DNA of 64,000 nt from Streptomyces griseus. Its GTDB lineage: Bacteria; Actinomycetota; Actinomycetes; Nanopelagicales; Nanopelagicaceae. Below the pieces are notes generated by a model. That model searched no databases, had not been told where the DNA came from, and saw only the letters and a program-made list of their open reading frames with translations. The position numbers and the translations under genes were made by a program. Position 1 is the stretch's first letter. Each line of letters starts with the position of its first letter. The stretch is taken from the NCBI GenBank assembly GCA_945884695.1, contig CAMCYO010000004.1, positions 56,648-120,647 on the forward strand, given 5' to 3'. Positions 6,602 to 49,976 of this stretch are shown here, piece by piece.

Positions 6602-6613
6602 TAATCTCATACT

Positions 6614-9818: not shown

Positions 9819-10666
9819 CGCCTTAACGCCAAGTTTGTATAGATTTCAGAGGTCGCAGTTGAGGTATTCATTGTGTAAAAATGTAATCCAGGAGCCCCTG
9901 CTAAAAGTAAGTCCTGGCAAAGTTTAGTTGCAATTTCAATACCAAGTGCCTTAACTGCATCGGGATTAGATTCGATATCTTCAAAACGTTTACGTAGAGC
10001 ATCTGGAATAGGGGTTCCGCTGAGTTCGGACATTCTCACTAACTGCTTTACATTTGTAACGGGAAGAATTCCCGGTATAACGGGAAGGCTGGAGCCTCTC
10101 TCTGCTAAACGCGCCACGAGTGCGCTCCATTGAGTAGCATCAAAAAAGAATTGTGTCGTTGCAAAACTTGCGCCCAAATTTTCTTTACGTATCAACACAT
10201 CAATATCCTTATCAAGATTTCCGCCCGATGCGGGATGGCCATCGGGAAAAGCTGCAACACCAACAGTGAAATCCCCAAATTCACAAGCGAGCGCGACAAG
10301 TTCATCGGCATGATTGAGCCCATGAGGAATAGAAACCCATGGAGCTCGCGGACCACCTTCTGGGTCTCCACGAAGTGCCAAAATAGATTTAATTCCAACA
10401 TCACGGTAGCGAGTAAGAATGTGAAGAATTTCCTCTTGCGTCGAGCCAACGCATGTTAGGTGGGCAATAGTTGGAATCTGCGTTCTTTTCGTGATTTCAG
10501 AGGTGATAGCGATTGTGCGATCCCGAGTTGAGCCACCTGCGCCATAAGTGACAGATACAAAATCAGGTGCAATCGGCCCAAGTGCTTCTATTGCACTCCA
10601 TAGGCGCTCTTCCCCTGGTAAATCTTTGGGAGGGAAGAATTCAAAAGAGATCGTTGGGGCAGACAT
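9815..10666 (-). CDS. metF: Methylenetetrahydrofolate reductase
   Basis: ISFEFFPPKD...VSVTYGAGGSTRDRT. I prefer ATG 10666 (preceded by AAAGGAGAG) over the longest ORF start at 10711. Confidence 0.9.
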   Translation of the reverse strand: MSAPTISFEFFPPKDLPGEERLWSAIEALGPIAPDFVSVTYGAGGSTRDRTIAITSEITKRTQIPTIAHLTCVGSTQEEILHILTRYRDVGIKSILALRGDPEGGPRAPWVSIPHGLNHADELVALACEFGDFTVGVAAFPDGHPASGGNLDKDIDVLIRKENLGASFATTQFFFDATQWSALVARLAERGSSLPVIPGILPVTNVKQLVRMSELSGTPIPDALRKRFEDIESNPDAVKALGIEIATKLCQDLLLAGAPGLHFYTMNTSTATSEIYTNLALRR

Positions 10667-10711
10667 ATCTCTCCTTTCGCCGACTATGGACAGTGAGGGT
10701 ACCGTTACCAC

Positions 10712-11797: not shown

Positions 11798-13282
11798 ATG
11801 CCGGCACGCGTAAAAGGTCCAACTGACCATGTTCTCATTGTTGGTGCAGGGTTAGCAGGACTTAGTGCTGGCCTCAGACTTGCAGGGGCAGGTCGAAAAG
11901 TCACAATCGTTGAACGTGAAAGTGTTCCCGGCGGTCGCAACGGACTCCTGAAAAAAGATGGTTACGCATTTGATACAGGCCCAAGTGTATTGACGATGCC
12001 TTCGCTTATTAATGATGCCTTTAATAGTGTTGGTGAAGAACTTTCTGATTGGTTAGAACTCACACCCGTTGCGCCTTTGTATCGCGCTTTTTATGCAGAT
12101 GGATCACAACTTGATATTCATGCAAACACAGAGCAAATGGAAGCAGAGATCGCTCGCAACGTCAGCGCCTCTGATGCTTTGGGTTACAGACGGTATGTAG
12201 ATTTTGTAACTAAGTTATACAAATATGAAATGAATGATTTCATTGATCGCAATATTGACTCTCCCCTAAATCTGTTGACTCCCAATTTGGCCCGCCTTAT
12301 AGCCCTGGGTGGCTTTCGCCGTCTTGCTCCAAAAGTAAATCAATACCTTAAAGACCCCCGACTTCAAAAGGTCTACTCATTTCAAGCCATGTATGCCGGT
12401 GTAAGTCCACAACAAGCCTTAGCAATCTATGCAGTTATTGCCTACATGGATTCAGTCAATGGGGTATTTTTTCCCAAAGGCGGAATGCACGCACTTCCTA
12501 GAGCACTTGCAAGTGCTGGGCAGAAACATGGAATTACATTTAAATACAACTCTGAAGTCACTAAAGTAGATTTCAAAAATGGACGTGCTCAAGCTGTCAT
12601 TACCGCATCGGGTGAGCGCATTGAATGCGATGTGCTCGTTCTCAATCCAGATCTGCCAGTTGCATGGCGGGATTTGCTTGGTCGAACACCTGCATCCATT
12701 AAGCGTTTAAAGTATTCACCCTCATGTGTAACTATGTTAGTGGGTTCAAAAAAAGAATATTCGCACCTTGCCCACCACAACATTCACTTTGGAAATTCTT
12801 GGGATGGAGTTTTTGATGAATTGATTCATAAAAAAGTTCTGATGACCGACCCCAGCGTGCTTGTTACCGTTCCTTCAAAAGATGATCCAACGCTTGCACC
12901 TGCCGGTAAACACTCCTATTACGTTCTCTTTCCAACACCAAACCTGGATGCTGACATCGACTGGAAGAAAATGCGTGGTCCATATCGTGACCAAATGATT
13001 AAAACATTGGAATCACGCGGATACACAGATTTTGGTGACTCAATAGAAGTTGAATCCCTAACGACTCCATTAGATTGGCAGAACCAAGGAATGGAGCGAG
13101 GGGCGCCATTTGCCAGCGCTCATACCTTCTTTCAAACCGGTCCTTTCCGGCCTCGCAACCTGGCAAAAGGATTTGAAAACGTTGTTTTTGCAGGATCTGG
13201 AACGCAACCCGGAGTCGGTGTCCCCATGGTTTTAATTTCAGGGAGATTAGCAGCAGAGCGAATTGTGGGCCCGGTGCGCTAA
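11798..13282 (+). CDS. crtI: Phytoene desaturase
   Basis: VLIVGAGLAGLSAGLRLAGAGRKVTIVE...GGR and C-terminal FAGSGTQPGVGVPMV. It starts 1 nt after the crtE stop. Confidence 0.9.
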   Translation: MPARVKGPTDHVLIVGAGLAGLSAGLRLAGAGRKVTIVERESVPGGRNGLLKKDGYAFDTGPSVLTMPSLINDAFNSVGEELSDWLELTPVAPLYRAFYADGSQLDIHANTEQMEAEIARNVSASDALGYRRYVDFVTKLYKYEMNDFIDRNIDSPLNLLTPNLARLIALGGFRRLAPKVNQYLKDPRLQKVYSFQAMYAGVSPQQALAIYAVIAYMDSVNGVFFPKGGMHALPRALASAGQKHGITFKYNSEVTKVDFKNGRAQAVITASGERIECDVLVLNPDLPVAWRDLLGRTPASIKRLKYSPSCVTMLVGSKKEYSHLAHHNIHFGNSWDGVFDELIHKKVLMTDPSVLVTVPSKDDPTLAPAGKHSYYVLFPTPNLDADIDWKKMRGPYRDQMIKTLESRGYTDFGDSIEVESLTTPLDWQNQGMERGAPFASAHTFFQTGPFRPRNLAKGFENVVFAGSGTQPGVGVPMVLISGRLAAERIVGPVR

Positions 13283-14188
13283 ATGGACGAGCTGACTAGC
13301 GCCGGAATCTTAGATCCAGAACTTCGCGCTTCCTACGCCGAATGTAAAAGACTTAATGCACTCCATGGAAAAACGTATTACCTTGCAACGCTACTACTTC
13401 CTAAAGCCAAGCGTCCATTTGTCCACGCTCTCTATGGTTTTGCTCGTTATGCCGATGAAATTGTTGATGACTTAGCATCGCACCTGACACCTGCAGAAAA
13501 AGAGAGTGAGTTGCGTAGGTGGTCAGATTCGATTGTAAAAAGTTTAGAAACTGGCAAAAGTGATGATCACATCGGTAGAGCTTTAATCGACACCGTTAAT
13601 CGCTTCAATATTCCTCATGCACATTTCTCGGCATTCCTTCACTCCATGGCCATGGATCTAACCGTCACCGAATATGAAAGTTTTGAAGATCTCATGAAAT
13701 ACATCTACGGTTCAGCCTGCGTTATTGGCCTTGAAATGGTTCCGGTACTCGGGGCAATCTCGGATCAAGCATATGAGCCAGCAGAAAAACTTGGCACTGC
13801 ATTTCAATTAGCCAATTTCATTCGTGACGTAGGCGAGGATCTAGATCGCGGGCGTGTTTATCTTCCTCTTAATGAGTTAGGAGCCCATGGCGTCGATAGG
13901 GCGATGCTTGAACGGCGCACACTCACTCCTGAAATCGTCTCAGCACTCAAGGAGCAAATTGCGCGAGTCCGTACTTTACAAGGGCAAGCAAATCCCGGGA
14001 TTGAATTCTTGTCTCCCACAAGTAGGCCATGCATTCAAGCTGCCAGCGAGTTGTACTGCGGAATTGTTGATGAGGTTGAAAATAATAACTACGAGATTTT
14101 CACCAAACGTGCTAAAACTTCCACAAGTAAGCGAATGAAGGTTGCGAGCCGAGCATATCTTCGCTCGGTAATTGCTCGAATGGGCTAA
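13283..14188 (+). CDS. crtB: Phytoene synthase
   Basis: YGFARYADEIVDD and FQLANFIRDVGEDLDRGRVYLP. Confidence 0.9.
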   Translation: MDELTSAGILDPELRASYAECKRLNALHGKTYYLATLLLPKAKRPFVHALYGFARYADEIVDDLASHLTPAEKESELRRWSDSIVKSLETGKSDDHIGRALIDTVNRFNIPHAHFSAFLHSMAMDLTVTEYESFEDLMKYIYGSACVIGLEMVPVLGAISDQAYEPAEKLGTAFQLANFIRDVGEDLDRGRVYLPLNELGAHGVDRAMLERRTLTPEIVSALKEQIARVRTLQGQANPGIEFLSPTSRPCIQAASELYCGIVDEVENNNYEIFTKRAKTSTSKRMKVASRAYLRSVIARMG

Positions 14189-34509: not shown

Positions 34510-35424
34510 GTGAGTGAAACTTTCCCAGCGGTAAAATATTCAGATGAAGTGCTTGGTGCTCGCAGAGTTGGATCACCCATAGTTGCCCTCGAGTCCACAA
34601 TTATTAGTCATGGCTTGCCTCGTCCAACTAACTTTGACGTTGCCCAGGAAGTTGAAGAAATTGTTCGCCAGCGCGGAGCAACACCTGCAACCATCGCAGT
34701 GCTCGATGGTGTGGTTCACATAGGTCTATCTGCTATACAACTTCGGGATATAGCCAATCGCGATGACATTCTTAAAGCTTCTAGTCGCGATTTAGCAATT
34801 GCTGTCGCCAGAAAGAAAAGCTCTGCAACAACTGTTGCTGCAACAGCTCACTTAGCAGTCCTCTGCGGAATTCATATATTTGCAACTGGCGGACTCGGGG
34901 GCGTACATAGAGGAGCAGGCCAATCCTTCGATGAATCAGCCGATCTAACTGCACTGTCTACTCTAGATATCACCGTTATCTGCGCCGGAGTTAAATCAAT
35001 TCTCGATGTTGGAGCAACACTTGAGCGATTAGAAACTCTTGCCATTGGTGTAGTTGGCTACCGCACACTGGCTTTTCCGGGATTTTACTTAACAGATTCT
35101 GGTTTCACTCTCGAGCATCAAGTTGAATCACCGAAAGCGATTGCATCGATTATCTCTGCCCGTCGTGCGCTTTCAACTAACAATTCAGCCCTACTCGTGG
35201 CCAATCCAGTATTGAATCAGATGGAGCCCTCACTTCACGAGCGCGTTCTTGCCTCTGGGTTGGCCCTTGCTTCCGCCCAAAACATTACGGGAAAAGATGT
35301 CACACCGTTCTTGCTCGAACATTTTCACACCCACAGCAATGGTGAATCACTTCGCGTGAATATAGAACTCATTAAATCAAATGCCGCATTGGCTGCAGAT
35401 ATTGCCGTAGCCAGCGCACTGTAA
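34510..35424 (+). CDS. psuG: Pseudouridine-5'-phosphate glycosidase
   Basis: VALESTIISHGLPRPTN...FATGGLGGVHRG...DISADL-type motifs; 304 aa. Confidence 0.9.
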   Translation: MSETFPAVKYSDEVLGARRVGSPIVALESTIISHGLPRPTNFDVAQEVEEIVRQRGATPATIAVLDGVVHIGLSAIQLRDIANRDDILKASSRDLAIAVARKKSSATTVAATAHLAVLCGIHIFATGGLGGVHRGAGQSFDESADLTALSTLDITVICAGVKSILDVGATLERLETLAIGVVGYRTLAFPGFYLTDSGFTLEHQVESPKAIASIISARRALSTNNSALLVANPVLNQMEPSLHERVLASGLALASAQNITGKDVTPFLLEHFHTHSNGESLRVNIELIKSNAALAADIAVASAL

Positions 35425-35430
35425 GCACAC

Positions 35431-36324
35431 ATGGCAAATTTATTATGCATAGGTGATGTCATGCTCGATGTCGTTGCAATCGTTCCTTCGCAGATCAATT
35501 ACGGAAGCGATACACCTTCGCAGATTTCAACACATGGTGGCGGAGCGGCTGGAAATGTAGCTTCATGGGCTCAAGTCTCAGGCGCACAAACTCAAATAAT
35601 TGCCCGAGTAGGCAACGACTCTGCAGGTATCGCTATTTTATCCGAGTTTGATGGACTTGGAGTCAGGTATAAAAATACGATTGTGCCAGGAGCGCGCACA
35701 GGCGTTGTTGTTATTTTAGTTGATCCATCGGGTGAGCGCACGATGTTTCCCGAAACTGGAGCAAATTCAGGCCTGACCTTAAATGATTTGCCGGAGTTAA
35801 AAGGTTTTCAAGCGGTATACATATCTGGCTATGCTCTACAAAATCCACAATCTAGGCCGGGCGTACTTGCCATGATCGATGTTATTCGTGAAAACAAAAT
35901 TCCGATTTTCTTTGACCCTGCAACTGTTGGCGGAATGAGTCAGGTTAATATTGCGGAAATACTACGATGGCTACCTTTAATGTCCACTCTCCTTCTCAAC
36001 GAAGAAGAAGCCATTTTTCTTACTCAAGAATCGGATGTAAGGGCATCACTAGAGGCTTTACTTCAATCCACTCCAACGGTTGTGATCAAAAGAGGCTCTC
36101 TGGGATCTATTGGAAAAACTAAAGATGGAGAACTTCACACCATCGAATCGATAGAAGTATCAATGCTCGATACCACTGGCGCGGGAGATTCATATGCAGG
36201 CGGATACATTGCATCGTGGTTGAAAAATCCCGATATTGCCCAATGTATGAAGGCAGGATCTTTGGTAGCTAGTCAATGTGTGGCAATAGTTGGGGCACGT
36301 CCGCAGGTCACTACCGAGATTTAA
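35431..36324 (+). CDS. psuK: PfkB-family carbohydrate kinase (pseudouridine kinase inferred from psuG adjacency)
   Basis: GGAAGNVA and C-terminal [13 protein letters not shown] motifs. It lies 6 nt downstream of psuG. Confidence 0.75.
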
Positions 36325-36350: not shown

Positions 36351-37883
36351 ATGGCAACTACAAAGACTCCGGCAAAGAGAGCAACTAAAGGTAAGAAACC
36401 CATCGGACCAAAGCCGGGTGAATATCCCGGCAAGATTGTTGATATCGATGTTTCATCAGAGATGTCTGAGTCGTTCCTTGAGTATGCCTATTCAGTTATT
36501 TATTCGCGTGCACTTCCTGATGCTCGTGATGGATTAAAACCTGTTCATCGCAGAATTTTGCATCAGATGGCAGAGATGGGTCTGCGTCCAGAGCGTGGAC
36601 ATGTAAAGAGTGCGCGAGTTGTTGGTGAAGTAATGGGTAAATTGCACCCACACGGTGATGGTGCGATCTATGACGCACTCGTGCGTATGGCCCAATCTTT
36701 TTCCATGCGCTTGCCACTCATCGATGGGCATGGAAACTTTGGTTCACTCGATGCCGGCCCTGCTGCAATGCGCTACACCGAAGCTCGGCTCGCACTACCT
36801 GCAATGGCGATGGTTGCCGAAGCCGATGAAGACACCGTTGATTTTGGTTCTAACTATGACGGTCAAATTCTTGAACCCCTTGTACTTCCTGCTGCCTATC
36901 CAAACTTATTGGTAAACGGTGGATCTGGAATTGCTGTTGGTATGGCAACAAATATGGCGCCTCATAATCTTGGCGAAGTAATTGCAGCAACCAAACATCT
37001 CATTGAGAATCCAAGCGCAACCTTAAAGGCTTTAATGAAATTTGTTCCAGGACCAGATTTTCCAACAGGGGGCGTACTTGTAGGAAGTGAAGGCGTACGC
37101 GAGGCCTATGCCACAGGCAAAGGCAGTTTTAAAGTACGAGCAACAGTTGAGATCAGCAAGATTTCCTCAAGAAAAATGGGTCTTGTGATCAAGGAATTGC
37201 CTTTCACCATTGGGCCTGAAAAAGTGGTGGAACGCATTGCCGAACTTGCTAAAGCTAAGAAAATTTCCGGAATTTCAGACATTATTGATCTCACCGATGG
37301 TAGGACAGGTACAAACGTCGTTATCGAACTTAAAAATGGATTTGAGCCAGAGCAAGTACTGGAGCAACTCTTCAAACTCACTCCCCTAGAAGATGCATTT
37401 GCAATTAATGCAGTTGCCCTCGTAAAGGGCAAGCCGCAAACACTGGGCCTTAAAGAACTGCTGCAAGTTTTTATTGGCCACCGTATTGAGGTAGTACGCC
37501 GTCGCAGCGAGTTTAGAAAAGCAAAAGCAACCGCGCGGTTGACGCTAGTCGATGGTTTATTAAAAGCCATTATCGATATTGATAAGGTAATTAAAATTAT
37601 CCGAGGAAGCGATGATGCAACAGAGGCCAAATCTGCCCTCATCAAGGCTTTCAAACTCAACGATGAGCAAGCAACATACATTCTGGATATGCCACTTCGT
37701 CGCCTTACCAAGATGTCCAAACTAGAACTTGAATCTGAGCAAAAAGAGCTCAAGGCCGTCATTTCGGCCCTGACCGCCCTGCTTAAGAGTGAAGAGAACA
37801 TTAAGAGGCAAGTCTCGGATGAACTTACCGAAGTCAGCAAATCATTTGCTACCCCTCGCAAAACCAAGATACTCGCCGAGTAG
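36351..37883 (+). CDS. parC: Type IIA topoisomerase A subunit (ParC/GyrA-like), N-terminal breakage-reunion domain only (510 aa); C-terminal beta-pinwheel domain absent
   Basis: [26 protein letters not shown], catalytic Tyr motif [10 protein letters not shown], and a coiled-coil [17 protein letters not shown]. It ends at ...[13 protein letters not shown] then TAG. ATG 36351 is taken because the 5' part of the track ORF overlaps psuK. Confidence 0.8.
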
Positions 37884-37892
37884 GCTCATTCC

Positions 37893-39599
37893 ATGAGAAG
37901 TTCGAGCTGGTACGGCGGAGAAGATCGCGATTCATATATACATCGCGCGTGGATGCGCCGTGGAAATCCTGACTCAGCATTCGATGGTCGACCACAGATT
38001 GCGCTAGTCAACACGGCCTCTGATTTTGCGCCATGTAACTCTCACTTAACTGAAGTTGCACAAAGTGTGAAAAATGGTGTGTGGGAAGCAGGTGGAGTTC
38101 CACTTCATCTACCCATGATTTCTATTGGTGAAACACTTGTGCGCCCAACATCAATGCTCTGGCGCAATATGGTTGCCATGGCAACAGAGGAGTTATTGAG
38201 AGCAAATCCAATTGACGGAGTGGTTCTCTTGGGAGGTTGCGACAAAACAATTCCAGCGCTCTTAATGGGCGCAGCATCAGTTGATTTACCTTCAGTTCTT
38301 ATTTCTGGTGGGCCCATGCTGACTGGAACATTTGAAGGTGCGCCATTGGGTTGTGGAACAGATGTATGGAAAAGAAGTGAAGAAATGCGTGCTGGATTAC
38401 TCAGCAAAGCCAAGTTCTTATCTTCAGAAAGTGCCATGATCCGAAGCAAAGGTCACTGCAACACCATGGGAACAGCATCAACAATGAGTTTCATGGCAGA
38501 AGCCCTCGGTATGACTGCACCTGGTATTACTGGCATACCAGCACCTGACGCAAGACTTTTAGAGGCCTCACATAACACGGGACGACTTATTGTTGAAATG
38601 GTTAAAGTAGATCGCAAACCCAGTGATGTCATGACTAAGGCTTCCTTTATCAATGCAATCATCACCTTGGCCGGAATTGGCGGTTCAACAAACGCCGTTG
38701 TGCACCTGCTAGCAATTGCAGGTCGCTTGGGTGTTGACCTGACATTGGATGATTTTGATAAATACGGCTCACATATTCCTTTACTTGTAAATTTACAACC
38801 TGCTGGAAGGTACTTGATGGAAGACCTCCACCGTGCTGGTGGTTTGCATGCAGTACTTCGTGAGTTAAAAGATCATTTAGAGCCAGGTGCAATTACCGTG
38901 ACCGGCAAGCCCTTCATCGAACCTCTTGATCGCGCAGAGATATTTGATAAAGATGTCATCCGTAGTGCCAAAGAACCTCTACAGAAGAGCGCAGGCATTG
39001 CGATTTTGCGTGGCAATCTTGCTCCCAATGGCGCCGTTATAAAACCTGCTGCTGCAAGTGCCCACTTACTGACGCACAAAGGCCCTGCCGTAGTTTTTGA
39101 TAGCGTTGAAGATTTCCATCTACGAATTAATGATCCGGCCCTTGATGTTGATGAAAATTCGGTTCTGATTCTGCGCGGATGCGGACCCCGGGGCTATCCA
39201 GGCATGCCTGAAGTTGCCAACATGATTATGCCGGAAAAGGTTTTAGCTAAAGGAGTTACCGATATGGTCCGAATTTGCGATGGCCGAATGAGCGGAACAG
39301 CCTACGGAACAGTTATCTTGCATGTTGCACCAGAGGCAGCAAGCGGTGGGCCCTTGGGGCTAGTACACAATGGCGACATAATCATTGTTGATGTTCCTAA
39401 TAGACGCCTTGAAATCGATATATCAGCTGAAGAATTAGCAAAGAGAAAACCATCAAGTGCCATGACACAAGCATTTGCTCAACCTAAACGTGGATGGGAA
39501 CGCATCTACGTTGAGCATGTCATGCAGGCTGATAAAGGTGCCGATCTGGACTTGTTACAAGGTAGTAGTAGTTCGGACGTAACTCGCGAGTCACACTAG
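37893..39599 (+). CDS. IlvD/Edd-family dehydratase (sugar-acid dehydratase-like N-terminus)
   Basis: RSSSWYGG...GRPQIALVNTASDFAPCNSHL, GGCDKTIPA, a cluster Cys-containing segment (SKGHCNTMGTAST), and MSGTAYGTVILHVAPEA. Confidence 0.8.
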   Translation: MRSSSWYGGEDRDSYIHRAWMRRGNPDSAFDGRPQIALVNTASDFAPCNSHLTEVAQSVKNGVWEAGGVPLHLPMISIGETLVRPTSMLWRNMVAMATEELLRANPIDGVVLLGGCDKTIPALLMGAASVDLPSVLISGGPMLTGTFEGAPLGCGTDVWKRSEEMRAGLLSKAKFLSSESAMIRSKGHCNTMGTASTMSFMAEALGMTAPGITGIPAPDARLLEASHNTGRLIVEMVKVDRKPSDVMTKASFINAIITLAGIGGSTNAVVHLLAIAGRLGVDLTLDDFDKYGSHIPLLVNLQPAGRYLMEDLHRAGGLHAVLRELKDHLEPGAITVTGKPFIEPLDRAEIFDKDVIRSAKEPLQKSAGIAILRGNLAPNGAVIKPAAASAHLLTHKGPAVVFDSVEDFHLRINDPALDVDENSVLILRGCGPRGYPGMPEVANMIMPEKVLAKGVTDMVRICDGRMSGTAYGTVILHVAPEAASGGPLGLVHNGDIIIVDVPNRRLEIDISAEELAKRKPSSAMTQAFAQPKRGWERIYVEHVMQADKGADLDLLQGSSSSDVTRESH

Positions 39600-40876
39600 A
39601 TTCCTGCTTGTAAAACCTCTCGCACCGCACTCATTGTCTTATCTATATCGCTACTCGTATGAGCACTTGAAAGAAACCACGTGCCTCTAGGCAAGATTCT
39701 GATTCCCTTTTCCAACAGCGCGAAGGCGAATTTGGCATAACGCTCGCGATTTGCTTTCATGGCTGAGCGATATTCAGTTGGACCTTTAAGATCAAAACGA
39801 ACGTTAAATACAGCTGGATAACCAACTATTTCATGCTCAACTCCTGCAGAGGCAAATTCGCTTGATAATTCTTTCATTAAGCGACCACCTGACACATCAA
39901 TACTCTTATAAGGCGCTTGGCTTTCGAGCAATTTCAACGTGGCAAGAGTTGCCGCCATAGAAACTGATTGTGTGTTATACGTACCGCCATGCATAACTTT
40001 TCCATGTGCAATCAAATCCATCAGCTCTTTCTTGCCTGCAATTGCCGCTACGGCAAAGCCATTAGCTAGCGCTTTACCTAAAATTGTTAGATCGGGTGTG
40101 ACTCCCAAAACTTTCTGAGCCCCACCATCGCTGACTCGAAATCCTGTAATGACTTCATCAAAAATTAGAACTGTCCCGTACTTTGTTGCTAATTCGCGCA
40201 CGCGCCCCAAATATCCAGGAAGTGGAAGTACTCCCCCAGAATTAAACATAATGGGCTCCATAATAATGCCGGCAATATCGCCGTTCTTGAGTTGTTCCTC
40301 AATCACATCGGCGTTATTCCACGGTAATACAATAATATTCTCACTCAACTCTTGACCTTGAGTTGCTGCTAAAGCATTGGGATGCAAAGGCTCGCCAGCA
40401 AATGCCATATCTGGTGCGACGCTGACTAAAACATTGTCAAACCATCCGTGATAGTGACCTTCAAATTTAATCATTTTCCATCGACCCCTTGCTGCGCGAG
40501 CAAGACGAAAAGCAACTTGTACGGCTTCTGAGCCAGAAGATGCAAAACGCACTCGTTCGGCACTTGGAACCATTTGTGTTAAAAGCTTTGCAGCTTCATA
40601 TTCCAGCGGAGTTTGACCTGCAACAAGCAAAGAAACATCTAACTGTTTCTTTGCCGCATCAATCACTTCTTGCGGGCTATGCCCCAAAATCATGGGCCCC
40701 ATGCCCAACACATAATCTGTGAGGCTGTTGCCATCAACATCGACCAAAGTGCAACCATGTGCTGATGTAAAAACTAAGGGATGAGGTTTAAAACCAGTTC
40801 GATAACCGCTATTGATTCCACCGGCCACATATTCAGAGCCTTGAGTAACCGCATTTTGCGATTGCCCAAATTCCAT
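39596..40876 (-). CDS. Class III (GSA-aminomutase-like) PLP-dependent aminotransferase
   Basis: 426 aa with ASSGSEAV, LIFDEVITGFR and ILGKALANG (PLP Lys). TGATG overlap with the upstream gene. Confidence 0.8.
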   Translation of the reverse strand: MEFGQSQNAVTQGSEYVAGGINSGYRTGFKPHPLVFTSAHGCTLVDVDGNSLTDYVLGMGPMILGHSPQEVIDAAKKQLDVSLLVAGQTPLEYEAAKLLTQMVPSAERVRFASSGSEAVQVAFRLARAARGRWKMIKFEGHYHGWFDNVLVSVAPDMAFAGEPLHPNALAATQGQELSENIIVLPWNNADVIEEQLKNGDIAGIIMEPIMFNSGGVLPLPGYLGRVRELATKYGTVLIFDEVITGFRVSDGGAQKVLGVTPDLTILGKALANGFAVAAIAGKKELMDLIAHGKVMHGGTYNTQSVSMAATLATLKLLESQAPYKSIDVSGGRLMKELSSEFASAGVEHEIVGYPAVFNVRFDLKGPTEYRSAMKANRERYAKFAFALLEKGIRILPRGTWFLSSAHTSSDIDKTMSAVREVLQAGI

Positions 40877-42126
40877 CAGATTTGGCCTTTTCTTGTCAGC
40901 AATGCAAGTAGTGCTACTCGGTCATGACCAGTTGCCTTCTGGACTTCATCTTCATCCAAAGCATCTGCATCGAGGCCTCGAAGAAAATATCCTGCCAGCG
41001 CTTGCGCCGTGGCTGGCTCATCCATAATTCCTGAATCAACTTTTTCAACATAAGTTTTCAATCTCTGTGCAACGACCCCTAAACCATTTCTAAAGAATGT
41101 GAAGTTTGCAGCAAATCGCGTAGGTAGTTGAGCACCTGAAAGATCCCAGCCTTGATAAAAGCCTCGCTCGAGTGAGCGCTGAACCAATCTGTAATGGTTC
41201 CTCCATGCATTCCTAACATTGTTAGCATTTCCCACAGGAATGATATTCGTGGAACCATCACTCAAGCGCACGCCGGTGCCTGCAACAGCTACTTGCAAAG
41301 CCTGCTTGGCATAATCCGCCGCAGGATGATCAAGTGTTTGAAACGCGGCAGAAATACCAGCTGCAGCAGAATAGTCGTATGTTCCGTAATGAAATGCAGT
41401 GAGCCGACCTTGCGCTGCTGTGATGAAATCGGGTGCTGAAAAACGTCCATCTAGACCAATAATTGCTTGCGTGGTTTCAATTTGTACTTCAAACTTCAAA
41501 CTGCCTTGTGGAAGTTTATGAGCACGCTCAAGCTCAACACAAGCATCAACCATCACTAAAACCTGACTGGCAAAAGTTACTTTGGGAAGCGTCACTACAA
41601 AATTATCTAAATTTCTATTGTGAGCAATGAAGCCGCTAAGGAAGAGATCTAGAGTTCGTAGCGCCCTATCTCGAGTGATTGCTTCAAATGATTTGATACG
41701 AATTCCTAAAAATGCCGTGTTCACTCCCCGGAGAGCTTCTAATGCCTCTGAAATCGCCTCATCCTCCTCGGCGTCAGAGCGACGGCCATAGCCATCTTCG
41801 AAATCAATGCGTAGATCTTCAATAGGTTCATTTTCCAATTTTGCATTCAATCGATCCCACCAAGCGGTTACAACTTTTACATCCTCTCCGATTGCGTCAG
41901 CGAAAGATTGTGCAGTGGAAGCATGTTCAGCCATCGTTCCACGTGCAAGCGCGCCCCATTGCCTTTGGATCTCTGAAGTGAACTTATCTGCCGGCACATA
42001 ACAGGTGTGCACAGGTTGGCGAGAGGGATTAAATACACCATACCTGTTTGCCAAAGCGTGATCACTCTTCGCGAGTGCTTTGTCAGCTTTTTTAAAAAAA
42101 GAAGAGGATAAATTCTCAGAGGTCAT
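40876..42126 (-). CDS. Uncharacterised HpcH/CitE (citrate-lyase-beta / malyl-CoA-lyase)-fold protein
   Basis: Ordered motifs resemble the CitE/HpcH TIM barrel: RIDFEDGYG, GIRIKSF, VVTLPKV, FEVQIETTQAI, FHYGTYDYSA. It is translationally coupled on both sides (ATGA with alc, TGATG with the aminotransferase). Confidence 0.5.
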   Translation of the reverse strand: MTSENLSSSFFKKADKALAKSDHALANRYGVFNPSRQPVHTCYVPADKFTSEIQRQWGALARGTMAEHASTAQSFADAIGEDVKVVTAWWDRLNAKLENEPIEDLRIDFEDGYGRRSDAEEDEAISEALEALRGVNTAFLGIRIKSFEAITRDRALRTLDLFLSGFIAHNRNLDNFVVTLPKVTFASQVLVMVDACVELERAHKLPQGSLKFEVQIETTQAIIGLDGRFSAPDFITAAQGRLTAFHYGTYDYSAAAGISAAFQTLDHPAADYAKQALQVAVAGTGVRLSDGSTNIIPVGNANNVRNAWRNHYRLVQRSLERGFYQGWDLSGAQLPTRFAANFTFFRNGLGVVAQRLKTYVEKVDSGIMDEPATAQALAGYFLRGLDADALDEDEVQKATGHDRVALLALLTRKGQI

Positions 42127-43184
42127 GAAAGTAAATCTTTTATTACTGCAGAAATCTTCATTTCACTCTGGTCAGGCAAGGAATTCCACCATTGCTGGGT
42201 CAAAGCTTTTATGCCAGCTTTAGTAGGACGCCCCCACACTCGTAAACGACCGATTCCCCCATCTGGATATACATCGAGTCTAATCGAGGATACCGCTGAA
42301 GAATTATCGACTATAAATCTGTGTTGAGTATCGGGTTGCACTTTCACTTTAGAAATCAATGCAATTGATCCTACGTTTTTAGAAAGGTTTTTCTCCTCCC
42401 CTGCGCTCAAACTGATCCAACCAGGCGCATTTCCTTTAAAGTGAGTTGTATCCATTTCAACTGCTGAAATATTTCCTTCTACTCCAAGATTGAGTGCAAA
42501 CCAGTCATTACCATCGCCTCTGCGCCTGCGTGTTTCCCAACCTTGCGATTGATTCTGATGTACTCCGGGTAACATCGCATTACTTGCAGAAGAATAAAAG
42601 TCATCACTACTTCCGATGAACAAACTTCCGTTTTCTACGGCAGCCAAATCAACTTCTCCTCGAGCAATAATCCATCCGGGATCTGGAATAACAACGCCAT
42701 GAGCGCGAAAACGCGCAACGCCACCATCGGGATAAATACTCAACCGCACATGTGTCCAACGTTTAGTACTCGCAACATCAAATGAATTCTCAAAATCACC
42801 TTTAAGCGTTGATTTAGGAAGGATTTGCTCCCAGTGCGCACTCTCCAATAGATCGGGCGATGGATACCCCTCTATAGCGGTAGCTTCTACAGATGCGCTT
42901 TCGGGAAAATTACCGACAAAATTTCCTGTATCAATAACGACGCTCTTAATAATTCCAGCGGCACCTAGACGAATTACTGCCCAATCATTTCCTGGAGTTC
43001 GACGACGTCGCGTTTCCCAACCGTCGTAAATTTGACCTTTATGTCCAAAGGTATGTGAAGCAAATTTGGCACGATTTTCACCTAGAAGATTTTCTTTTTC
43101 TGCAAAGAAGTCATCGTTGGCACTGATCACTCCTGCTCCTAATAGTCGCGAAGCAAGATTAATAAGCCCTAAGTCTTTATTCAT
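42123..43184 (-). CDS. alc: Allantoicase
   Basis: Two tandem allantoicase repeats (GWETRRRR..GNDW twice); N-terminal LINLASRLLGAGVISANDDFFAEKENL. Confidence 0.9.
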   Translation of the reverse strand: MNKDLGLINLASRLLGAGVISANDDFFAEKENLLGENRAKFASHTFGHKGQIYDGWETRRRRTPGNDWAVIRLGAAGIIKSVVIDTGNFVGNFPESASVEATAIEGYPSPDLLESAHWEQILPKSTLKGDFENSFDVASTKRWTHVRLSIYPDGGVARFRAHGVVIPDPGWIIARGEVDLAAVENGSLFIGSSDDFYSSASNAMLPGVHQNQSQGWETRRRRGDGNDWFALNLGVEGNISAVEMDTTHFKGNAPGWISLSAGEEKNLSKNVGSIALISKVKVQPDTQHRFIVDNSSAVSSIRLDVYPDGGIGRLRVWGRPTKAGIKALTQQWWNSLPDQSEMKISAVIKDLLS

Positions 43185-44524
43185 GCGTGACTCCTTGATA
43201 GGAATTTTCCCTGAGGTGATCCGATGAAATTTCCGTCGTCATGAACAAGTTTACCTCTCAGCCATGTCTTAGAAACCACACCTTTCAAAACTTTTCCAGC
43301 ATAAGGTGAAACGGGATTCTTATGCGCAAGTTTAAGTGGATCCACTGTGAAAGTCCTATCTGGATCAAATAGATACATATCTGCATCTTTACCTACATCT
43401 ATTGCGCCTTTTTGTGAGAGACCAACCAGTTCGGCTGGCCGAGATGACATCCATGTAGCAAGGTCAAAAAGACTTATTCCACGCTTGGAGCCCTCAGTCC
43501 AAATGATTGGCACTCCAATTTGTAAGGAAGAAATGCCTCCCCAAGCTGCCTGGAAATCTCCAACTTCAAAAAGTTTCAGATCTGGGGTGCACGGTGAATG
43601 ATCAGAAACGATCATGCTAATAATCCCTGATTTAAGCCCTTGCCATAATCGATCTTGATTGGCCGATTCGCGAATTGGTGGACAGCACTTGTACTGCGTC
43701 GCCCCATCTGCAATTTCATCACTATTTAAGGAAAGGTAGTGAGGGCACGTTTCGGTGGAAATTTTGACGCCGTCTTCTTGAGCCGAAGCAATCATCGCAA
43801 TAGCATCCGAGCTAGATAGATGTAAGACGTGAACTCGCGCCCCAGTTCTACGTGATTCTTCTATTAACTGAGCAATTGCAACATTTTCAGCACCCTTTGG
43901 CCGAGAAGCCAAAAATTCTGAATACTTCTTAGATGCGGCTTTAGAGGATCGCTCGATAGCAACCGAATCTTCTGCATGGACAACCATTAATCCATCATGT
44001 TTGGCCAGAACTTGGAGCGCAGAAGCCAAATCATCTAGCGATGAAGCGGGAAATTCATCAACACCCGAATGTAAAAGAAAACATTTGAATCCAAAAACTC
44101 CAGCTTTAAGTAGCGGTTCGAGTTGGGAAACATTCCCCGGAATCGAACCTCCCCAGAAACCTACATCCACACTGCATTGCGTCTCGGCAACGCTTTTTTT
44201 AATTGCCAAAGCATCGGGAGTGACAGTGGGTGGAATGCTATTAAGTGGCATATCTATAACAGTCGTAACTCCTCCGGCAGCAGCAGCCCTTGTTGCTGTT
44301 GCAAATCCCTCCCACGGTGTTCGACCCGGTTCATTTATATGTACATGTGTATCAACTACACCTGGCATTAAGACACCCAATACTTCGTAATTCTCGCCTG
44401 CATCTACTTTCGCATTAAAATCTAGAAGAGCAACAATCTTTCCATTAGTAATAGCAACAGCTACTGGGCGTTCGCCTATTGCAGTGACTGCACGCTTTGC
44501 ACGAATTACCAGGTCATATGACAT
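43181..44524 (-). CDS. allB: Allantoinase
   Basis: Cyclic amidohydrolase with VDTHVHINEPGRT.WEGF, GFKCFL, VHAE, SDHSP. I prefer ATG 44524 (MSYDLVIRA...), 1 nt after the aceB stop; the track start at 44533 is a TTG. Confidence 0.9.
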   Translation of the reverse strand: MSYDLVIRAKRAVTAIGERPVAVAITNGKIVALLDFNAKVDAGENYEVLGVLMPGVVDTHVHINEPGRTPWEGFATATRAAAAGGVTTVIDMPLNSIPPTVTPDALAIKKSVAETQCSVDVGFWGGSIPGNVSQLEPLLKAGVFGFKCFLLHSGVDEFPASSLDDLASALQVLAKHDGLMVVHAEDSVAIERSSKAASKKYSEFLASRPKGAENVAIAQLIEESRRTGARVHVLHLSSSDAIAMIASAQEDGVKISTETCPHYLSLNSDEIADGATQYKCCPPIRESANQDRLWQGLKSGIISMIVSDHSPCTPDLKLFEVGDFQAAWGGISSLQIGVPIIWTEGSKRGISLFDLATWMSSRPAELVGLSQKGAIDVGKDADMYLFDPDRTFTVDPLKLAHKNPVSPYAGKVLKGVVSKTWLRGKLVHDDGNFIGSPQGKFLSRSHA

Positions 44525-44525
44525 T

Positions 44526-46109
44526 TCAATCAATCATCTCCATCGCTGGCAAAGTTAAGAAATCTGCATAATTTGGATCAAGACTTACCTTTTCGAAAAG
44601 TAAAGATGCATCTTTCATGCGTTGAGGATCAAAGCCAGCGACCAATAGTCGTGTGGCTTCAGAGGCCAGTACTTCACGCACCATCTCAGGTGATGCAGTG
44701 CGACCCGTGTCCTTATATGTCACTCTATTTTGCACTTGCTGCCAAATCTGTGAGCGAGAAATCTCTGCCGTCGCTGCATCCTCCATTAAGTTGTGAATTG
44801 CCGCTGCTCCATTTCCATCGAGCCACGCTGCTAAGTATTGGAGGGCGATATCAATATTTTGACGAAGTCCTGCTTCAGTAACTTCACCTGGAATCGACTT
44901 CACACTCAGTAAATCCTCGGCGCTAACATTTACCTCAGGTCGTTGTTTATCTAGTTGGTTTGTTCTTCCAACTAAGAACTTATCGAAAATCTCAGCACAA
45001 ACAGGAACTAAATCTGGGTGAGCAACCCACGAACCATCAAATCCATCATTGGCTTCGCGCTCCTTATCAGCGCGAACTTTCTCAAGGGCAATCCGATTAA
45101 CTTCTGGATCTTTACGGCTAGGAATAAAAGCTGCCATCCCACCCATCGCAAATGCACCTCGCTTATGGCAAGTTTTAACCAACAAGTTCGCATAAGCGCG
45201 CATCATCGGAGCGTTCATAGTTATTGAATTGCGATCAGGCAAAATAAAATCAGGACCGGCATCTCTAAAATACTTAATGACTGAAAACATGTAATCCCAG
45301 CGACCGGCGTTAAGCCCACTCATATGATCCTTGAGCTCATACAAAATTTCATCCATTTCAAATGCGGCAGGAATCGTCTCAATGAGAACAGTGGCTCGTA
45401 CAGTGCCGTGAGGTAAACCTAAAGTTTTCTCAGCAAAGGTAAATATCTCGTCCCATAGTCTGGCTTCAAGGTGGCTCTCCATTTTTGGGAGATAAAAATA
45501 CGGTCCTGAACCCCTCGCCAAAAGAGTTTTCGCATTGTGATAAAAATGCATTCCAAAATCGAAAAGGGCAGCAACTACTGCGTGACCATCTACTTTTAGA
45601 TGTGACTCATCAAAGTGCCAACCGCGAGGACGAACAATTAGTGTGGCAATATTCCCGTCTTCGCGAAGCGCATAATTTTTGCCTTCAGGCGAAGTGAAAG
45701 TGAGGTCTTTGCGTGCAACTCCGTGCAAAACCACTTGGCCCTGTACAACATTGGACCAGTGCGGTGTATTTGAATCTTCTAAATCTGCAAGCCACACGCG
45801 CGCACCAGAATTTAAGGCGTTGATTGCCATTTTTGGATCTGTTGGCCCTGTTATTTCAACTCTGCGATCTTGTAAATCTGCTGGTGCCGGTGCAACCTTC
45901 CAACTTCCTTCACGAACTGCCTTTGTAGATTCAAGGAAATCTAAAGAACCGCCTTTTGATAGTTCAATCCGTCGCGCTTTACGAGCTCCAAGCAACAGAT
46001 CTCTGGTTTCATGAAATTTTTGGTCTAACTCTGCAACAAAATTAATTGCTTCCTGCGTAAGAATCTTTTCTGACCCAGCAATTGTTGAAGGGCTGACTCT
46101 GACATCCAT
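44526..46109 (-). CDS. aceB: Malate synthase A
   Basis: 527 aa with EITGP.D.KM.INALNSGA..WLADLEDS, RPRGWH, YFYLPKMESHLEARLW, GLNAGRWDY, GGMAA. Confidence 0.9.
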   Translation of the reverse strand: MDVRVSPSTIAGSEKILTQEAINFVAELDQKFHETRDLLLGARKARRIELSKGGSLDFLESTKAVREGSWKVAPAPADLQDRRVEITGPTDPKMAINALNSGARVWLADLEDSNTPHWSNVVQGQVVLHGVARKDLTFTSPEGKNYALREDGNIATLIVRPRGWHFDESHLKVDGHAVVAALFDFGMHFYHNAKTLLARGSGPYFYLPKMESHLEARLWDEIFTFAEKTLGLPHGTVRATVLIETIPAAFEMDEILYELKDHMSGLNAGRWDYMFSVIKYFRDAGPDFILPDRNSITMNAPMMRAYANLLVKTCHKRGAFAMGGMAAFIPSRKDPEVNRIALEKVRADKEREANDGFDGSWVAHPDLVPVCAEIFDKFLVGRTNQLDKQRPEVNVSAEDLLSVKSIPGEVTEAGLRQNIDIALQYLAAWLDGNGAAAIHNLMEDAATAEISRSQIWQQVQNRVTYKDTGRTASPEMVREVLASEATRLLVAGFDPQRMKDASLLFEKVSLDPNYADFLTLPAMEMID

Positions 46110-46157
46110 GACGTATCTCCTAGGCGATTTGGCAAACTATTTGGTGATTAAATAACA

Positions 46158-46198
46158 CAAATGCTGGGCGGTCAAACCTTGCGACCGCCCAGCATTTG
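46158..46198 (-). terminator. Perfect 16-bp hairpin (CAAATGCTGGGCGGTC-N9-GACCGCCCAGCATTTG) between the permease gene and aceB
   Basis: Read directly. On the minus strand it follows the permease stop by about 30 nt and is followed by the T-rich tract TGTGTTATTTAAT. Confidence 0.7.
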
Positions 46199-46229
46199 CG
46201 CCCATTAACTCTTTCTTAGGCTTGCTGAT

Positions 46230-47690
46230 TTAACCCTTGTGAGGGCTCTTGCCACCGTTAAGTGCGTAATAGACAAGACCAGCGACGCCGACTCCAATAA
46301 ACCATGTGTATGGTCCAAGGTTTGCGCTGTAAGAAGATGGTCCATAAATTGGAAGGATGCTTGAGAAGACTGCAGCAATTCCAGCAGCTACGAAAGCCTT
46401 GATATTCCAACCATTTGTGAACTTGTAAGGTCCATCTTCTTTGTAAAGACCAGCAACATCTAGAGTCTGCTTGCGAAGCAAATAGTAATCAACCATGATC
46501 ACACCAAATAGTGGACCCATTGTTGAACCAATTGCATTCACGAAACTTGGTGCATTATCCCAAGGATGAAGTGGGTATAGCACCAATGCGATTCCTGCTG
46601 CGATATATCCGCCCTTCTTGAAGTCAATCTTCGAAGGAGCCACATTTGAGAAATCAAATGCTGGGGATACGAAGTTTGCAACAACGTTAATTCCAAGTGT
46701 TGCCACAGCAAATGTCACAGCAGCCAAAAGCACTAGGAAGATATTGTCAAACTTTGCGGAAATCTTTGCTGGCTCAAGTAGAACTTCGCCATAAACCTTG
46801 CTCGCAGAAGCTGTTGTAAGTGCAGCAACGATTGAGAAAAGAATAAGGTTTACAGGCAAGCCCCATAGGTTGCCCTTCTTAACGGTTTCTTTATCTGGAG
46901 CAAAGCGTGAGAAATCGCAGAAGTTAAGGAACAAGGCCGCGAAGTAGGTAATCCACGTTGCAGAAATTGCCAATATGGCAGCCAGGGAACCTGGGGTAAC
47001 TGCGAGCCCTGTAGCATTTTTAGCAAGTGCTGCAAGATCAGCTTCAGGCATGTCAATTGAGAAAGAAATAGTTCCTGACTTAATTGCCAAACCGATAGCC
47101 AAAAGCAACATCATTATCCATACGGCTGGACCAGCAAAGTCCTGGAACCGACGTACGGTTTCCATTCCTTTTCTGATGATAAGGAGTTGCGCTGCCCACA
47201 CGCCGAGGTAGCAAAGTACTTCCAATGTAGTGTGATCAAACATCCGAGATGTCTCATTGAAATTCTTAGGACCGTCGTAGCGAGTGAGGAATGCAACAAT
47301 GGCGCCTGCAGCTGCACTGGTCTGTGCGCCGTACCAAAATGTTGCAACGACAGCACGAACAAGTGCCGGAACGTTTGCGCCGAAAGTTCCGAAGGAAGCG
47401 CGCGCGAGTACTGGGTAGGGAACACCAGTTTTTTGTCCTGCATAGCCGACTAAGTTCATTAGCCAGAAAATAACTACAGAACCGATACCAATTGCTATGA
47501 GGAATTTAAGAGTATTCCCTGCAACAAGGAAAAGACTTGCTGCTAGAAAATAACCGTAGAGACTGTGAACGTCGGAAGTCCAAACATTAAATATGCTAAA
47601 GACTCCCCATTTGCGTTCTGTTGCTGGCGCCAAATCTTCATTATGAAGACGAGGACTTGCAGTGCGACGCACTTCGTCCGAAATAGACAT
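46230..47690 (-). CDS. NCS1-family nucleobase/allantoin:cation symporter
   Basis: 486 aa with 12 TM segments. The N-terminal NEDLAP...ERKW motif is typical of NCS1 (PucI/Mhp1-like). It is adjacent to the allantoin operon. Confidence 0.85.
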   Translation of the reverse strand: MSISDEVRRTASPRLHNEDLAPATERKWGVFSIFNVWTSDVHSLYGYFLAASLFLVAGNTLKFLIAIGIGSVVIFWLMNLVGYAGQKTGVPYPVLARASFGTFGANVPALVRAVVATFWYGAQTSAAAGAIVAFLTRYDGPKNFNETSRMFDHTTLEVLCYLGVWAAQLLIIRKGMETVRRFQDFAGPAVWIMMLLLAIGLAIKSGTISFSIDMPEADLAALAKNATGLAVTPGSLAAILAISATWITYFAALFLNFCDFSRFAPDKETVKKGNLWGLPVNLILFSIVAALTTASASKVYGEVLLEPAKISAKFDNIFLVLLAAVTFAVATLGINVVANFVSPAFDFSNVAPSKIDFKKGGYIAAGIALVLYPLHPWDNAPSFVNAIGSTMGPLFGVIMVDYYLLRKQTLDVAGLYKEDGPYKFTNGWNIKAFVAAGIAAVFSSILPIYGPSSYSANLGPYTWFIGVGVAGLVYYALNGGKSPHKG

Positions 47691-47900: not shown

Positions 47901-49976
47901 TTACGCATCAATTCTTTCGCGATCAATTTCTGCTGTTGAGATAAATTCCTTACGAGGTGCAACATCATTTCCCATCAAGAGTTCAAAAATCGCATCGGCG
48001 GCAATAGCATCTTTTACTGTGACTCTACGCAATGTCCTGTGGTCTGGATCCATTGTGGTCTCCCGCAATTGATCGGCGTCCATCTCTCCCAAACCTTTAT
48101 AGCGCTGCAAAGGTTCTTTCCATTTTTTGCCAGCCTTTGTCAGGTCAGCTAATACTTTTTTCATTTCATCATCGGAATATGTGTAATGAAAATCGCCTTT
48201 TTTCCCGCCAGATCCCATGACCTCAATGCGATGAAGGGGTGGAATCGCTGCAAATACGCGACCTGCATCAATGAGAGGGCGCATATAGCGATAAAGAAGA
48301 GTCAATAAAAGGCATCGAATATGTGCACCGTCAACATCAGCATCTGACATTAAAATAATTCGGCCATAGCGTGCATCGTCGAGTTCAAAGGAACGCCCAG
48401 AACCAGCACCAATAACTTGGATGATGGATGCGCATTCGGTGTTATCGAGCATCTGCGAGAGTGAGGCTTTTTGTACGTTAAGAATCTTTCCGCGAATCGG
48501 CAAGATCGCCTGAAATTCAGAATTTCGCGCAGCTTTTGTTGTACCTAACGCTGACTCGCCCTCAACGATAAAGAGCTCAGTTCTAGAGACATCCTCAGAG
48601 CGACAATCTGAAAGTTTTGTTGGCAAAGAAGAATTTTCCAGCGCATTTTTGCGACGTTGCAAATCTTTATGTGCTCGAGCAGAGATTCGAGTACGCGATG
48701 CTGCCGCAACTTTTTCAAGGATCAATCGCCCATTAGCTTTATCGATGCGCTTTGTTGTTGAAAAGAACGCTTTCATCTCATCTGCTACCACCGAGGCCAC
48801 AATGCGCGTTGCTGCTGCTGTGCCAAGTACTTCCTTAGTCTGACCCTCAAACTGTGGTTCTGACATACGAACTGTAATAACGGCTGTTAAGCCCTCCATA
48901 ATGTCATCTTTAATGACATCTGCTTCGGAGTTCTTTAGAGTCTTTGTTGAACGAAGTACTTCATTAAAAGCTTTTGTGATAGCTCTCTCAAAGCCCAACA
49001 TGTGCGAGCCACCTTTAGGGGTAGCAATAATGTTAACGAAGGAACGAGCAGTGGTTTCAAAACCATTGCCCCACTTCATTGCAATGTCCACGCCCATGTC
49101 GCGCTCGACTTCGGTTGAAATCATATGCCCTTGATCATCAAGAACAGGCACCGTTTCTTGATAGTGCCCACTACCCGTTAAGCGAATGACATCCCCAACT
49201 GCTTCATCGGGCTGTAAAAATGTGCAGTACTCAGAGATTCCACCTTTATGGAAGAAAGTTTCGGTAGTTTTGCCCTTGCTGCGATTGTCATTCACTATCA
49301 GCGTTAAGCCCGGAACCAAATATGAAGTCTGGCGGGCACGCGCATAAATCTCTTCTAAATCTAGCTCAGCCTCTTTGAGAAAAATCTGCTTATCACTCCA
49401 CCATTTAATTCGCGTACCCGTTACTTTATGTGGAACTTTTCCAACTACGCGCAACCCTGAGGATGCAGTAAAGGGAGCTTTTGGCCCGTCGCCTTCAAAA
49501 ATTCCGGCAGCTCCTCTTTGAAATGACATCCAATAAATCTTTCCGTCACGATCAACTTCTGCGTCCAATCGAGAAGCAAGCGCATTTACAACAGATGCTC
49601 CGACGCCATGCAATCCACCAGAGGCTGCGTAGGATCCACCGCCAAATTTTCCACCCGCATGCAATTTTGTAAGAACAACTTCAACGCCCGTTAGGCCAGT
49701 CTTGGGTTCTTTATCAACGGGAATTCCGCGACCATCATCGTGAACTTCTACCGAGCCATCAGATTCGAGATTGATTTCAATTTTCTTGCAATGTCCGGCC
49801 AGCGCTTCATCGACAGAGTTATCGATAATTTCCCAGAGACAGTGCATGAGTCCACGTGAATCTGTGGAACCGATATACATGCCGGGGCGTTTGCGAACAG
49901 CATCTAAACCTTCGAGAACAGCAAGATCTTTGGCGGTATAGCTCGCCTCAATTAGGTCATTATCTTTGCTAGCCAC
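47901..49976 (-). CDS. parE: Type IIA topoisomerase B subunit (ParE/GyrB-like), full length
   Basis: LEGLDAVRKRPGMYIGST, EIIDNSVDEA, HDDGRGIPV (GHKL ATPase), EGESA/TOPRIM LFIVEGESALG, ILMSDADVDGAHI, C-terminal QRYKGLGEM; 691 aa. Confidence 0.85.
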   Translation of the reverse strand: MASKDNDLIEASYTAKDLAVLEGLDAVRKRPGMYIGSTDSRGLMHCLWEIIDNSVDEALAGHCKKIEINLESDGSVEVHDDGRGIPVDKEPKTGLTGVEVVLTKLHAGGKFGGGSYAASGGLHGVGASVVNALASRLDAEVDRDGKIYWMSFQRGAAGIFEGDGPKAPFTASSGLRVVGKVPHKVTGTRIKWWSDKQIFLKEAELDLEEIYARARQTSYLVPGLTLIVNDNRSKGKTTETFFHKGGISEYCTFLQPDEAVGDVIRLTGSGHYQETVPVLDDQGHMISTEVERDMGVDIAMKWGNGFETTARSFVNIIATPKGGSHMLGFERAITKAFNEVLRSTKTLKNSEADVIKDDIMEGLTAVITVRMSEPQFEGQTKEVLGTAAATRIVASVVADEMKAFFSTTKRIDKANGRLILEKVAAASRTRISARAHKDLQRRKNALENSSLPTKLSDCRSEDVSRTELFIVEGESALGTTKAARNSEFQAILPIRGKILNVQKASLSQMLDNTECASIIQVIGAGSGRSFELDDARYGRIILMSDADVDGAHIRCLLLTLLYRYMRPLIDAGRVFAAIPPLHRIEVMGSGGKKGDFHYTYSDDEMKKVLADLTKAGKKWKEPLQRYKGLGEMDADQLRETTMDPDHRTLRRVTVKDAIAADAIFELLMGNDVAPRKEFISTAEIDRERIDA

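Follow-up and report, generated by a model that had tools for sequence, protein, structure and literature searches.

In bacterial topoisomerase IV (Topo IV), the CTD (C-terminal domain) found on the A subunit, ParC, is thought to make the enzyme processive, to let it favour positive supercoils and catenanes, and to offer docking sites to partner proteins. The actinobacterial enzyme has been described from Streptomyces coelicolor, where parC (SCO5836) and parE (SCO5822) are oppositely oriented, 13 kb apart and next to hrdB, and where the purified ParC and ParE together decatenate and relax DNA without supercoiling it (PMC3905888). Removal of the CTD has been studied in the laboratory: Escherichia coli Topo IV assembled with ParC(1-482) is active, with about 80-120-fold more enzyme needed, loses chirality discrimination and becomes distributive (PMC2875013), and CTD deletion lowers DNA affinity and converts gyrase into an ATP-dependent relaxing enzyme (PMC8216471). 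A ParC with zero CTD blades, and hence no CTD, occurs naturally in Chlamydia (PMC8216471), and Mycobacterium smegmatis has TopoNM, an enzyme distant from all type IIA topoisomerases that is encoded by the adjacent genes topoN and topoM and introduces positive supercoils (PMC8084294). Here we analyzed a 64-kb stretch of DNA (contig CAMCYO010000004.1, positions 56,648 to 120,647 of the forward strand; hereafter the window), in which the open reading frame (ORF) at 36351-37883 on the forward strand encodes a ParC of 510 amino acids (aa) that comprises the breakage-reunion domain alone, without a beta-pinwheel CTD. We are confident, if not certain, that this is the genuine and functional parC of a freshwater acI actinobacterium (Ca. 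Nanopelagicaceae/Planktophila group), that its CTD was lost in an ancestor, and that its product is likely to work with ParE as a minimal strand-passage enzyme. The anatomy of the protein, its conservation, the selection acting on it, its single origin and its independence from the adjoining cargo block are established by the analyses described below.

The ORF begins with an ATG at 36351 and ends with a TAG stop codon at 37881-37883. An alternative, longer ORF from an ATG at 36276 runs into the upstream PfkB gene, and the start at 36351 is favoured because the N-terminal sequence MAT(A/T)K... is kept in relatives, while the sequence upstream of 36351 is not. PF00521 (DNA_topoisoIV) is the single Pfam domain of the protein (residues 53-492, model positions 1-431 of 432, E-value 1e-149), and the breakage-reunion domain is complete, with the winged helix, the tower and the coiled-coil C-gate of a type IIA A subunit. 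The codons of the active-site pair Arg141-Tyr142, which includes the tyrosine of DNA cleavage, lie at 36771-36776 on the forward strand, within the motif AAMRYTE (residues 138-144, nucleotides 36762-36782), and this motif is unchanged in 15 of 15 short forms. The original prediction of an intact 510-aa ORF was borne out, as each of the motifs it quoted could be located between 36351 and 37883. In a search of PDB sequences, residues 28-507 were collinear with the Staphylococcus aureus GyrA core fragment (positions 7-487 of 490, E-value 2e-146), and two other engineered cores, those of Mycobacterium tuberculosis GyrA (positions 10-499 of 503) and Streptococcus pneumoniae ParC55 (positions 7-481 of 496), matched without large gaps. 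As such, the natural protein is equivalent to the breakage-reunion domain that crystallographers have excised from its longer relatives. For annotation, the lesson is that the 'GyrA/ParC' calls of about 510 aa in this lineage are complete genes rather than fragments. A seeming oddity in the quinolone-resistance region, namely a glycine at the equivalent of Ser83, was dropped from consideration, as the site is equally variable among full-length actinobacterial ParCs.

The protein ends with PRKTKILAE followed by the TAG stop (37854-37883, forward strand), at the point where relatives run on into the linker and the CTD. When 35 full-length actinobacterial ParCs were aligned with the protein to place its C-terminus, this end was matched by FATPRRTILLESQG in the closest full-length relative, a protein that runs on for another 317 residues. 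The stop falls a few residues past the RRTxI-type motif, where relatives start a beta-pinwheel CTD of about 320 aa, and it coincides with the ends of engineered constructs lacking the CTD; the alignment agrees with the position at the boundary between the two domains that had been proposed from the ORF alone. The CTD was also sought with a profile hidden Markov model (HMM) of 320 positions, built from the 35 actinobacterial ParC CTDs and applied with --max to the six frames. It had no match at E<=10 anywhere in the 64-kb window, in line with the earlier reading that no frame there encodes this domain, and the scores of its positive controls were 434 and 439 bits. PF03989, the beta-pinwheel family of the canonical GyrA/ParC architecture, was likewise found in none of the scanned window ORFs (the listed ORFs of at least 150 aa, minus a few that overlap larger genes), so that the window ParC departs from that architecture. 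Because it has no CTD, it also carries no GyrA box.

The protein is ParC and not GyrA. The best NCBIfam model, NF004044, matched with 718.9 bits (cutoff 654) over its positions 2-478 of 738, whereas the GyrA equivalogs NF004043 and TIGR01063 stayed below their cutoffs (674.3 bits vs 902 and 646.9 vs 877, respectively). The ParC loci of other actinobacteria, among them Streptomyces, Kribbella and Arthrobacter, were 60-69% identical, the values for the ParC of Streptomyces and other Actinomycetes being 60-66%; Nocardioides was also among the closest full-length relatives. In a neighbour-joining (NJ) tree the short ParC was nested within actinobacterial ParC. The partner gene parE lies at 47901-49976 on the reverse strand and encodes an intact 691-aa B subunit with the domains HATPase_c, DNA_gyraseB, Toprim and DNA_gyraseB_C and all catalytic motifs; its score for NF004189 was 777.8 bits (cutoff 740), and the early statement that an intact B subunit is encoded here on the opposite strand holds. 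parC and parE are convergent, and parE adjoins a principal-type sigma-70 gene and a DUF4192 gene. The locus hence shows what is expected of an actinobacterial Topo IV ortholog, namely grouping with ParC, a convergent parE beside the principal sigma-factor gene, and an intact ParE, and by sequence the gene is parC, the ortholog of S. coelicolor SCO5836. The S. coelicolor system shares the opposite orientation of the two genes and the position of parE beside the principal sigma gene, and the Streptomyces ParC is 62-65% identical over the core. In contrast, the Streptomyces protein, counted from where the match begins, has about 817 aa and includes a CTD of about 320 aa, which the acI ParC lacks altogether.

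The short form is not confined to the window. The identical 510-aa protein, followed by the same downstream gene, recurs on 24 or more contigs, which come from several metagenome samples that were assembled separately, and it is indexed in 32 blocks of the sequence collection, which removes the possibility raised at the outset that an assembly or frameshift artefact had created the stop. The best 120 protein clusters (81-93% identity) all contained proteins of 495-535 aa with PF00521 only; several of these clusters hold hundreds to more than 1,000 members, and the named sources were Ca. Nanopelagicaceae or Actinomycetota metagenome-assembled genomes (MAGs). In a scan of species-representative genomes, in which each match was extended in frame to its stop, 80 loci were recovered. 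Seventeen of these (L001-L017), at 79-92% identity to the window ParC and with a GC content of 0.43-0.52, are acI loci. Most of them bear the label Ca. Planktophila, Nanopelagicaceae or uncultured actinobacteria, and two have the labels of other taxa; in all 17 the gene stops 2-4 codons past the end of the query match; one of them, L003, comes from a complete chromosome of 1.41 Mb. No frameshift or internal stop was present in parC across these 17 species-level loci. L018 and nearly all of L020-L080, in contrast, run on for 310-395 residues, and the other actinobacterial loci that are readable in frame measure about 790-870 aa when counted from where the match starts. In L019 the CTD sits in a shifted frame, which reflects a frameshift in a long-read MAG, and L051 is also interrupted, where its match begins. 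In a representative library at 50% identity, the acI short ParC formed one cluster whose non-fragment neighbours were full length. Two further short matches in that library were rejected as chromosomal relatives, P0214 being a partial plant gene model and P0265 a mobile-element enzyme. As a side observation, CTD-only or truncated ParC calls such as those at L019 (6885-9657), L086 (2476-5059) and L087 (4001-4939) look like full-length genes split by frameshifts in long-read MAGs, and fragments of this kind crowd the protein databases and could pass for natural splits or orphan CTDs.

Selection on the short gene is strong. Between the window parC and L001-L004, the nonsynonymous rate dN was 0.07-0.11 and the synonymous rate dS 1.9-3.0, which is saturated, for a ratio (omega) of 0.03-0.05; over the last 80 codons omega was 0.06, and in deeper pairs the synonymous sites were fully saturated. 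parE was under the same level of constraint, with similar dN. The ordinary pseudogene that had been considered for this ORF is incompatible with these ratios. One could still imagine a decaying relic, with the lineage on its way to losing Topo IV, as in mycobacteria and corynebacteria, and with a short ParC that no longer functions, and the complete absence of parC and parE from some Actinobacteria (PMC3905888), together with the about 100-fold lower activity of the enzyme without CTD in E. coli, would be in keeping with such a course. However, the low omega at saturated synonymous sites in ParC and ParE alike, the catalytic motif without variation in 15 of 15 short forms, the 17 loci free of frameshifts and internal stops, and the persistence of the short form across the whole acI radiation make decay extremely improbable. 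The occurrence of the short form throughout the lineage, the purifying selection, the intact catalytic motifs and the equally constrained ParE instead support what had been suggested for the single ORF, namely a naturally minimal A subunit of the Topo IV type rather than a product of random decay.

The short forms also share one origin. In the NJ tree of the core domain, all 100 bootstrap replicates grouped 15 short forms in a single clade, and all 100 likewise placed the full-length L018 as the sister of this clade. L018 shares the gene order IMPase-MFS-DUF3071-phosphodiesterase-PsuG-PfkB-parC-parE. The simplest history would be that the CTD was deleted once, when the acI ancestor had parted from the L018 lineage and had not yet radiated. 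Directly upstream of parC in the window lies the pair formed by PsuG (pseudouridine-5'-phosphate glycosidase-like) and PfkB (34510-36324); the pair is kept in most acI loci and in L018, and it is missing from L009, L014 and L015, whose parC directly adjoins the gene for the phosphodiesterase.

Between the convergent parC and parE of the window lies a cargo block of about 10 kb (37893-47690), which is context and not part of the enzyme. It holds genes for an IlvD/Edd dehydratase, a class-III aminotransferase, DUF6986, allantoicase, an amidohydrolase, malate synthase and a purine/allantoin-type permease. The IlvD/Edd dehydratase gene starts with an ATG at 37893, 9 nucleotides past the parC stop, exactly as first reported. 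The start of this gene is itself ambiguous, since the ATG at 37893 gives a product of 568 aa whose residue 1 aligns at position 10 of the NCBIfam model, and gene callers applied to other assemblies place the start about 60 nucleotides downstream (about 37953), for a product of 548 aa. The nearness of an unrelated gene could speak for a local accident, that is, a sequence error near 37880 or a truncation by insertion of the ureide block. We consider the probability of such an accident to be practically negligible, since the same stop is present on the separately assembled contigs and in 17 other species, and since elsewhere the short parC has no insert or different inserts downstream. In L011, L013, L014, L015 and L017, the end of the convergent parE lies about 10-25 nucleotides past the short parC; in L003, L005 and L010, one ABC-F ATPase gene separates the two (11549-13153 in L003); the junction of L001 (5356-11000) holds an ABC transporter and an amidohydrolase, and that of L012 (11497-21466) a Zn-dehydrogenase, a GntR regulator and an M20 peptidase. 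With the same short parC present in relatives without the insert or with other inserts, the ureide block must be later than the truncation and not its cause, contrary to the earlier suggestion that the gene was cut short when the block arrived. Across these loci, the parC/parE junction looks like a recurrent insertion site, at which the cargo varies and the short ParC remains constant.

The precision of the cut, which falls exactly at the domain boundary, is also what one would expect of a split gene, whose CTD would be kept as a separate acI gene elsewhere and act in trans with the short ParC. This alternative, raised together with the original prediction, we nonetheless judge very unlikely. 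The six-frame HMM, which was applied to the window and to 19 loci, found no CTD-like sequence within 10 kb of parC at the 17 acI loci either, with controls at 434-439 bits, and where parE follows within about 10-25 nucleotides of the parC stop, as in the five relatives listed above, nothing has been left in place. Furthermore, a protein search with the CTD of the L018 lineage gave only small clusters (at most 13 members), which consist of partial ParCs from high-GC actinobacteria; an abundant CTD-only cluster, as would be expected for acI, was not among its results. The two CTD-only matches that were checked on long contigs stood beside the remains of a full-length parC, the first just downstream of a 174-aa PF00521 fragment and the second after an uncalled gap of 1.8 kb.

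A second feature sets the short forms apart. Residues 1-28 of the window ParC (36351-36434) form a basic tail rich in lysine and proline, and its residues 19-28 (36405-36434, forward strand) carry a 10-residue motif, GPKPGE[YF]PGK or a close variant, that is present in 15 of 15 short forms and restricted to the CTD-less clade. Over the 15 residues before the core, the net charge was +2 to +4 in the short forms, whereas 30 full-length relatives ranged from -4 to +2, with a mean of -0.9, and usually have PPPDDFEER where acI has the basic tail; the corresponding segment of Streptomyces ParC is acidic. Here we speculate that the tail might compensate for the CTD through DNA contacts or T-segment capture, so that efficient decatenation would be kept without a beta-pinwheel. 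We regard this as doubtful, and because the tail change and the loss of the CTD map to the same single branch, it stands as a hypothesis and not as a correlation. If true, it would provide a new answer to the question of what the ParC CTD is for, from bacteria that rank among the most abundant in freshwater. Compensation within ParE was considered as well and rejected, given that the alignment of ParE, which is collinear with the ParE of lineages with full-length ParC, shows no insertion or extension specific to acI. The clade-specific tail could alternatively be taken as a sign that the subunit has been re-purposed, such that it is not mainly a decatenase and might instead pair with GyrB or itself serve another process as a DNA-gate protein, the basic tail giving new contacts. 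Yet ParE is kept, co-located and equally conserved, neither ParC nor ParE shows further domain changes, and the tail change and the CTD loss on the same single branch count as one event, all of which leaves a change of role with very little probability.

The reading that we prefer, that of a functional ParC which lost its CTD in an ancestor, leads to the following picture of the enzyme. One deletion in the ancestor of the clade would have taken away the whole beta-pinwheel CTD, leaving a ParC that ends just past the RRTxI-type motif, with which the C-gate region closes. The sequence elements for dimerisation, for binding and cleavage of the G-segment and for the C-gate are all present and conserved, and by homology the short ParC is expected to dimerise and to bind and cleave the G-segment through Arg141 and Tyr142. 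Together with ParE it would form a ParC2ParE2 complex whose ATP-dependent strand passage would result in decatenation and relaxation, and T-segment capture mediated by the CTD would be gone along with that domain. Such an enzyme is predicted to act distributively, to treat positive and negative supercoils alike and to show far lower activity per molecule than canonical Topo IV, as is the case for E. coli Topo IV with ParC(1-482). The best functional models are this truncated ParC and GyrA59 with GyrB, which share the domain content and the end point of the acI ParC. However, both were truncated in the laboratory from enzymes whose evolution took place with a CTD, whereas the acI ParC has long been without one and may carry compensating changes. 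Kampranis and Maxwell (1996) reportedly found CTD-less gyrase to be an ATP-dependent relaxing enzyme. A slow-growing cell whose chromosome measures about 1.4 Mb, as in the one complete relative genome, could presumably manage with such low activity.

Several points weigh against this picture or limit its reach. The low activity expected without a CTD fits oddly with strong purifying selection unless it is compensated. Supercoiling would presumably be handled by a gyrase encoded elsewhere, a presumption drawn from the near-universality of gyrase. The search for an orphan CTD covered the 64-kb window and 10 kb to either side of parC in 17 relatives. Finally, the locus scan was pattern-based and covered part of Nanopelagicales, so that the node of the CTD loss is placed only approximately.

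With zero blades and maintenance by selection, the acI ParC belongs to the class of CTD-less ParCs. This architecture is already known from Chlamydia, and acI is a second natural case rather than a new enzyme class. Both are naturally CTD-less bacterial ParCs, but their origins are independent, the acI protein being nested in actinobacterial ParC with a full-length sister. Against NF007208 (479 positions), a short NCBIfam ParC model which we take to represent Chlamydia-type ParC, the acI protein scored 153.9 bits and did not reach the cutoff of 598. The acI bacteria are free-living plankton and not intracellular parasites. TopoNM of M. smegmatis is likewise an atypical two-subunit type IIA topoisomerase of an actinobacterium, but its description sets it apart from the acI ParC, which is close to canonical ParC and is encoded with its partner by convergent genes that do not form an operon. 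A search of the accessible literature returned nothing that links acI, Planktophila or Nanopelagicales with a CTD-less ParC, and the one match to Nanopelagicales and topoisomerase that it did return concerns resistance genes. A free-living, globally abundant lineage that keeps a CTD-less ParC under strong selection, with a full-length sister, represents a natural experiment, and the comparison between the acI ParC and that sister provides a system for asking which CTD functions are dispensable or replaceable. In addition, the loss of the CTD adds a concrete protein-domain loss to the genome streamlining of acI.

Two further observations were made in the course of this work. A second, unrelated CTD-less A subunit, the above-mentioned P0265, is encoded at L081 (6001-9482) and also at L082; it has 499 aa and, like the acI ParC, ends at the boundary between the N-terminal domain and the CTD. 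It differs in being only 45% identical to the window ParC and in the arrangement of its A and B genes, which overlap in one operon (the B subunit is GyrB-like, with 661 aa). Its neighbours on a 216-kb contig are a DnaE-type Pol III alpha subunit, DUF932 and an AAA_10 ATPase; this setting is unlike the chromosomal parC/parE context and suggests a type IIA topoisomerase pair on a mobile element. In the window itself, a carotenoid biosynthesis cluster at 5798-14188 comprises a Caroten_synth-family protein, a GT2 glycosyltransferase, two phytoene-desaturase-like oxidases, a polyprenyl synthase and a phytoene synthase, and it is broken by genes for a CDP-alcohol phosphatidyltransferase and MTHFR on the opposite strand.

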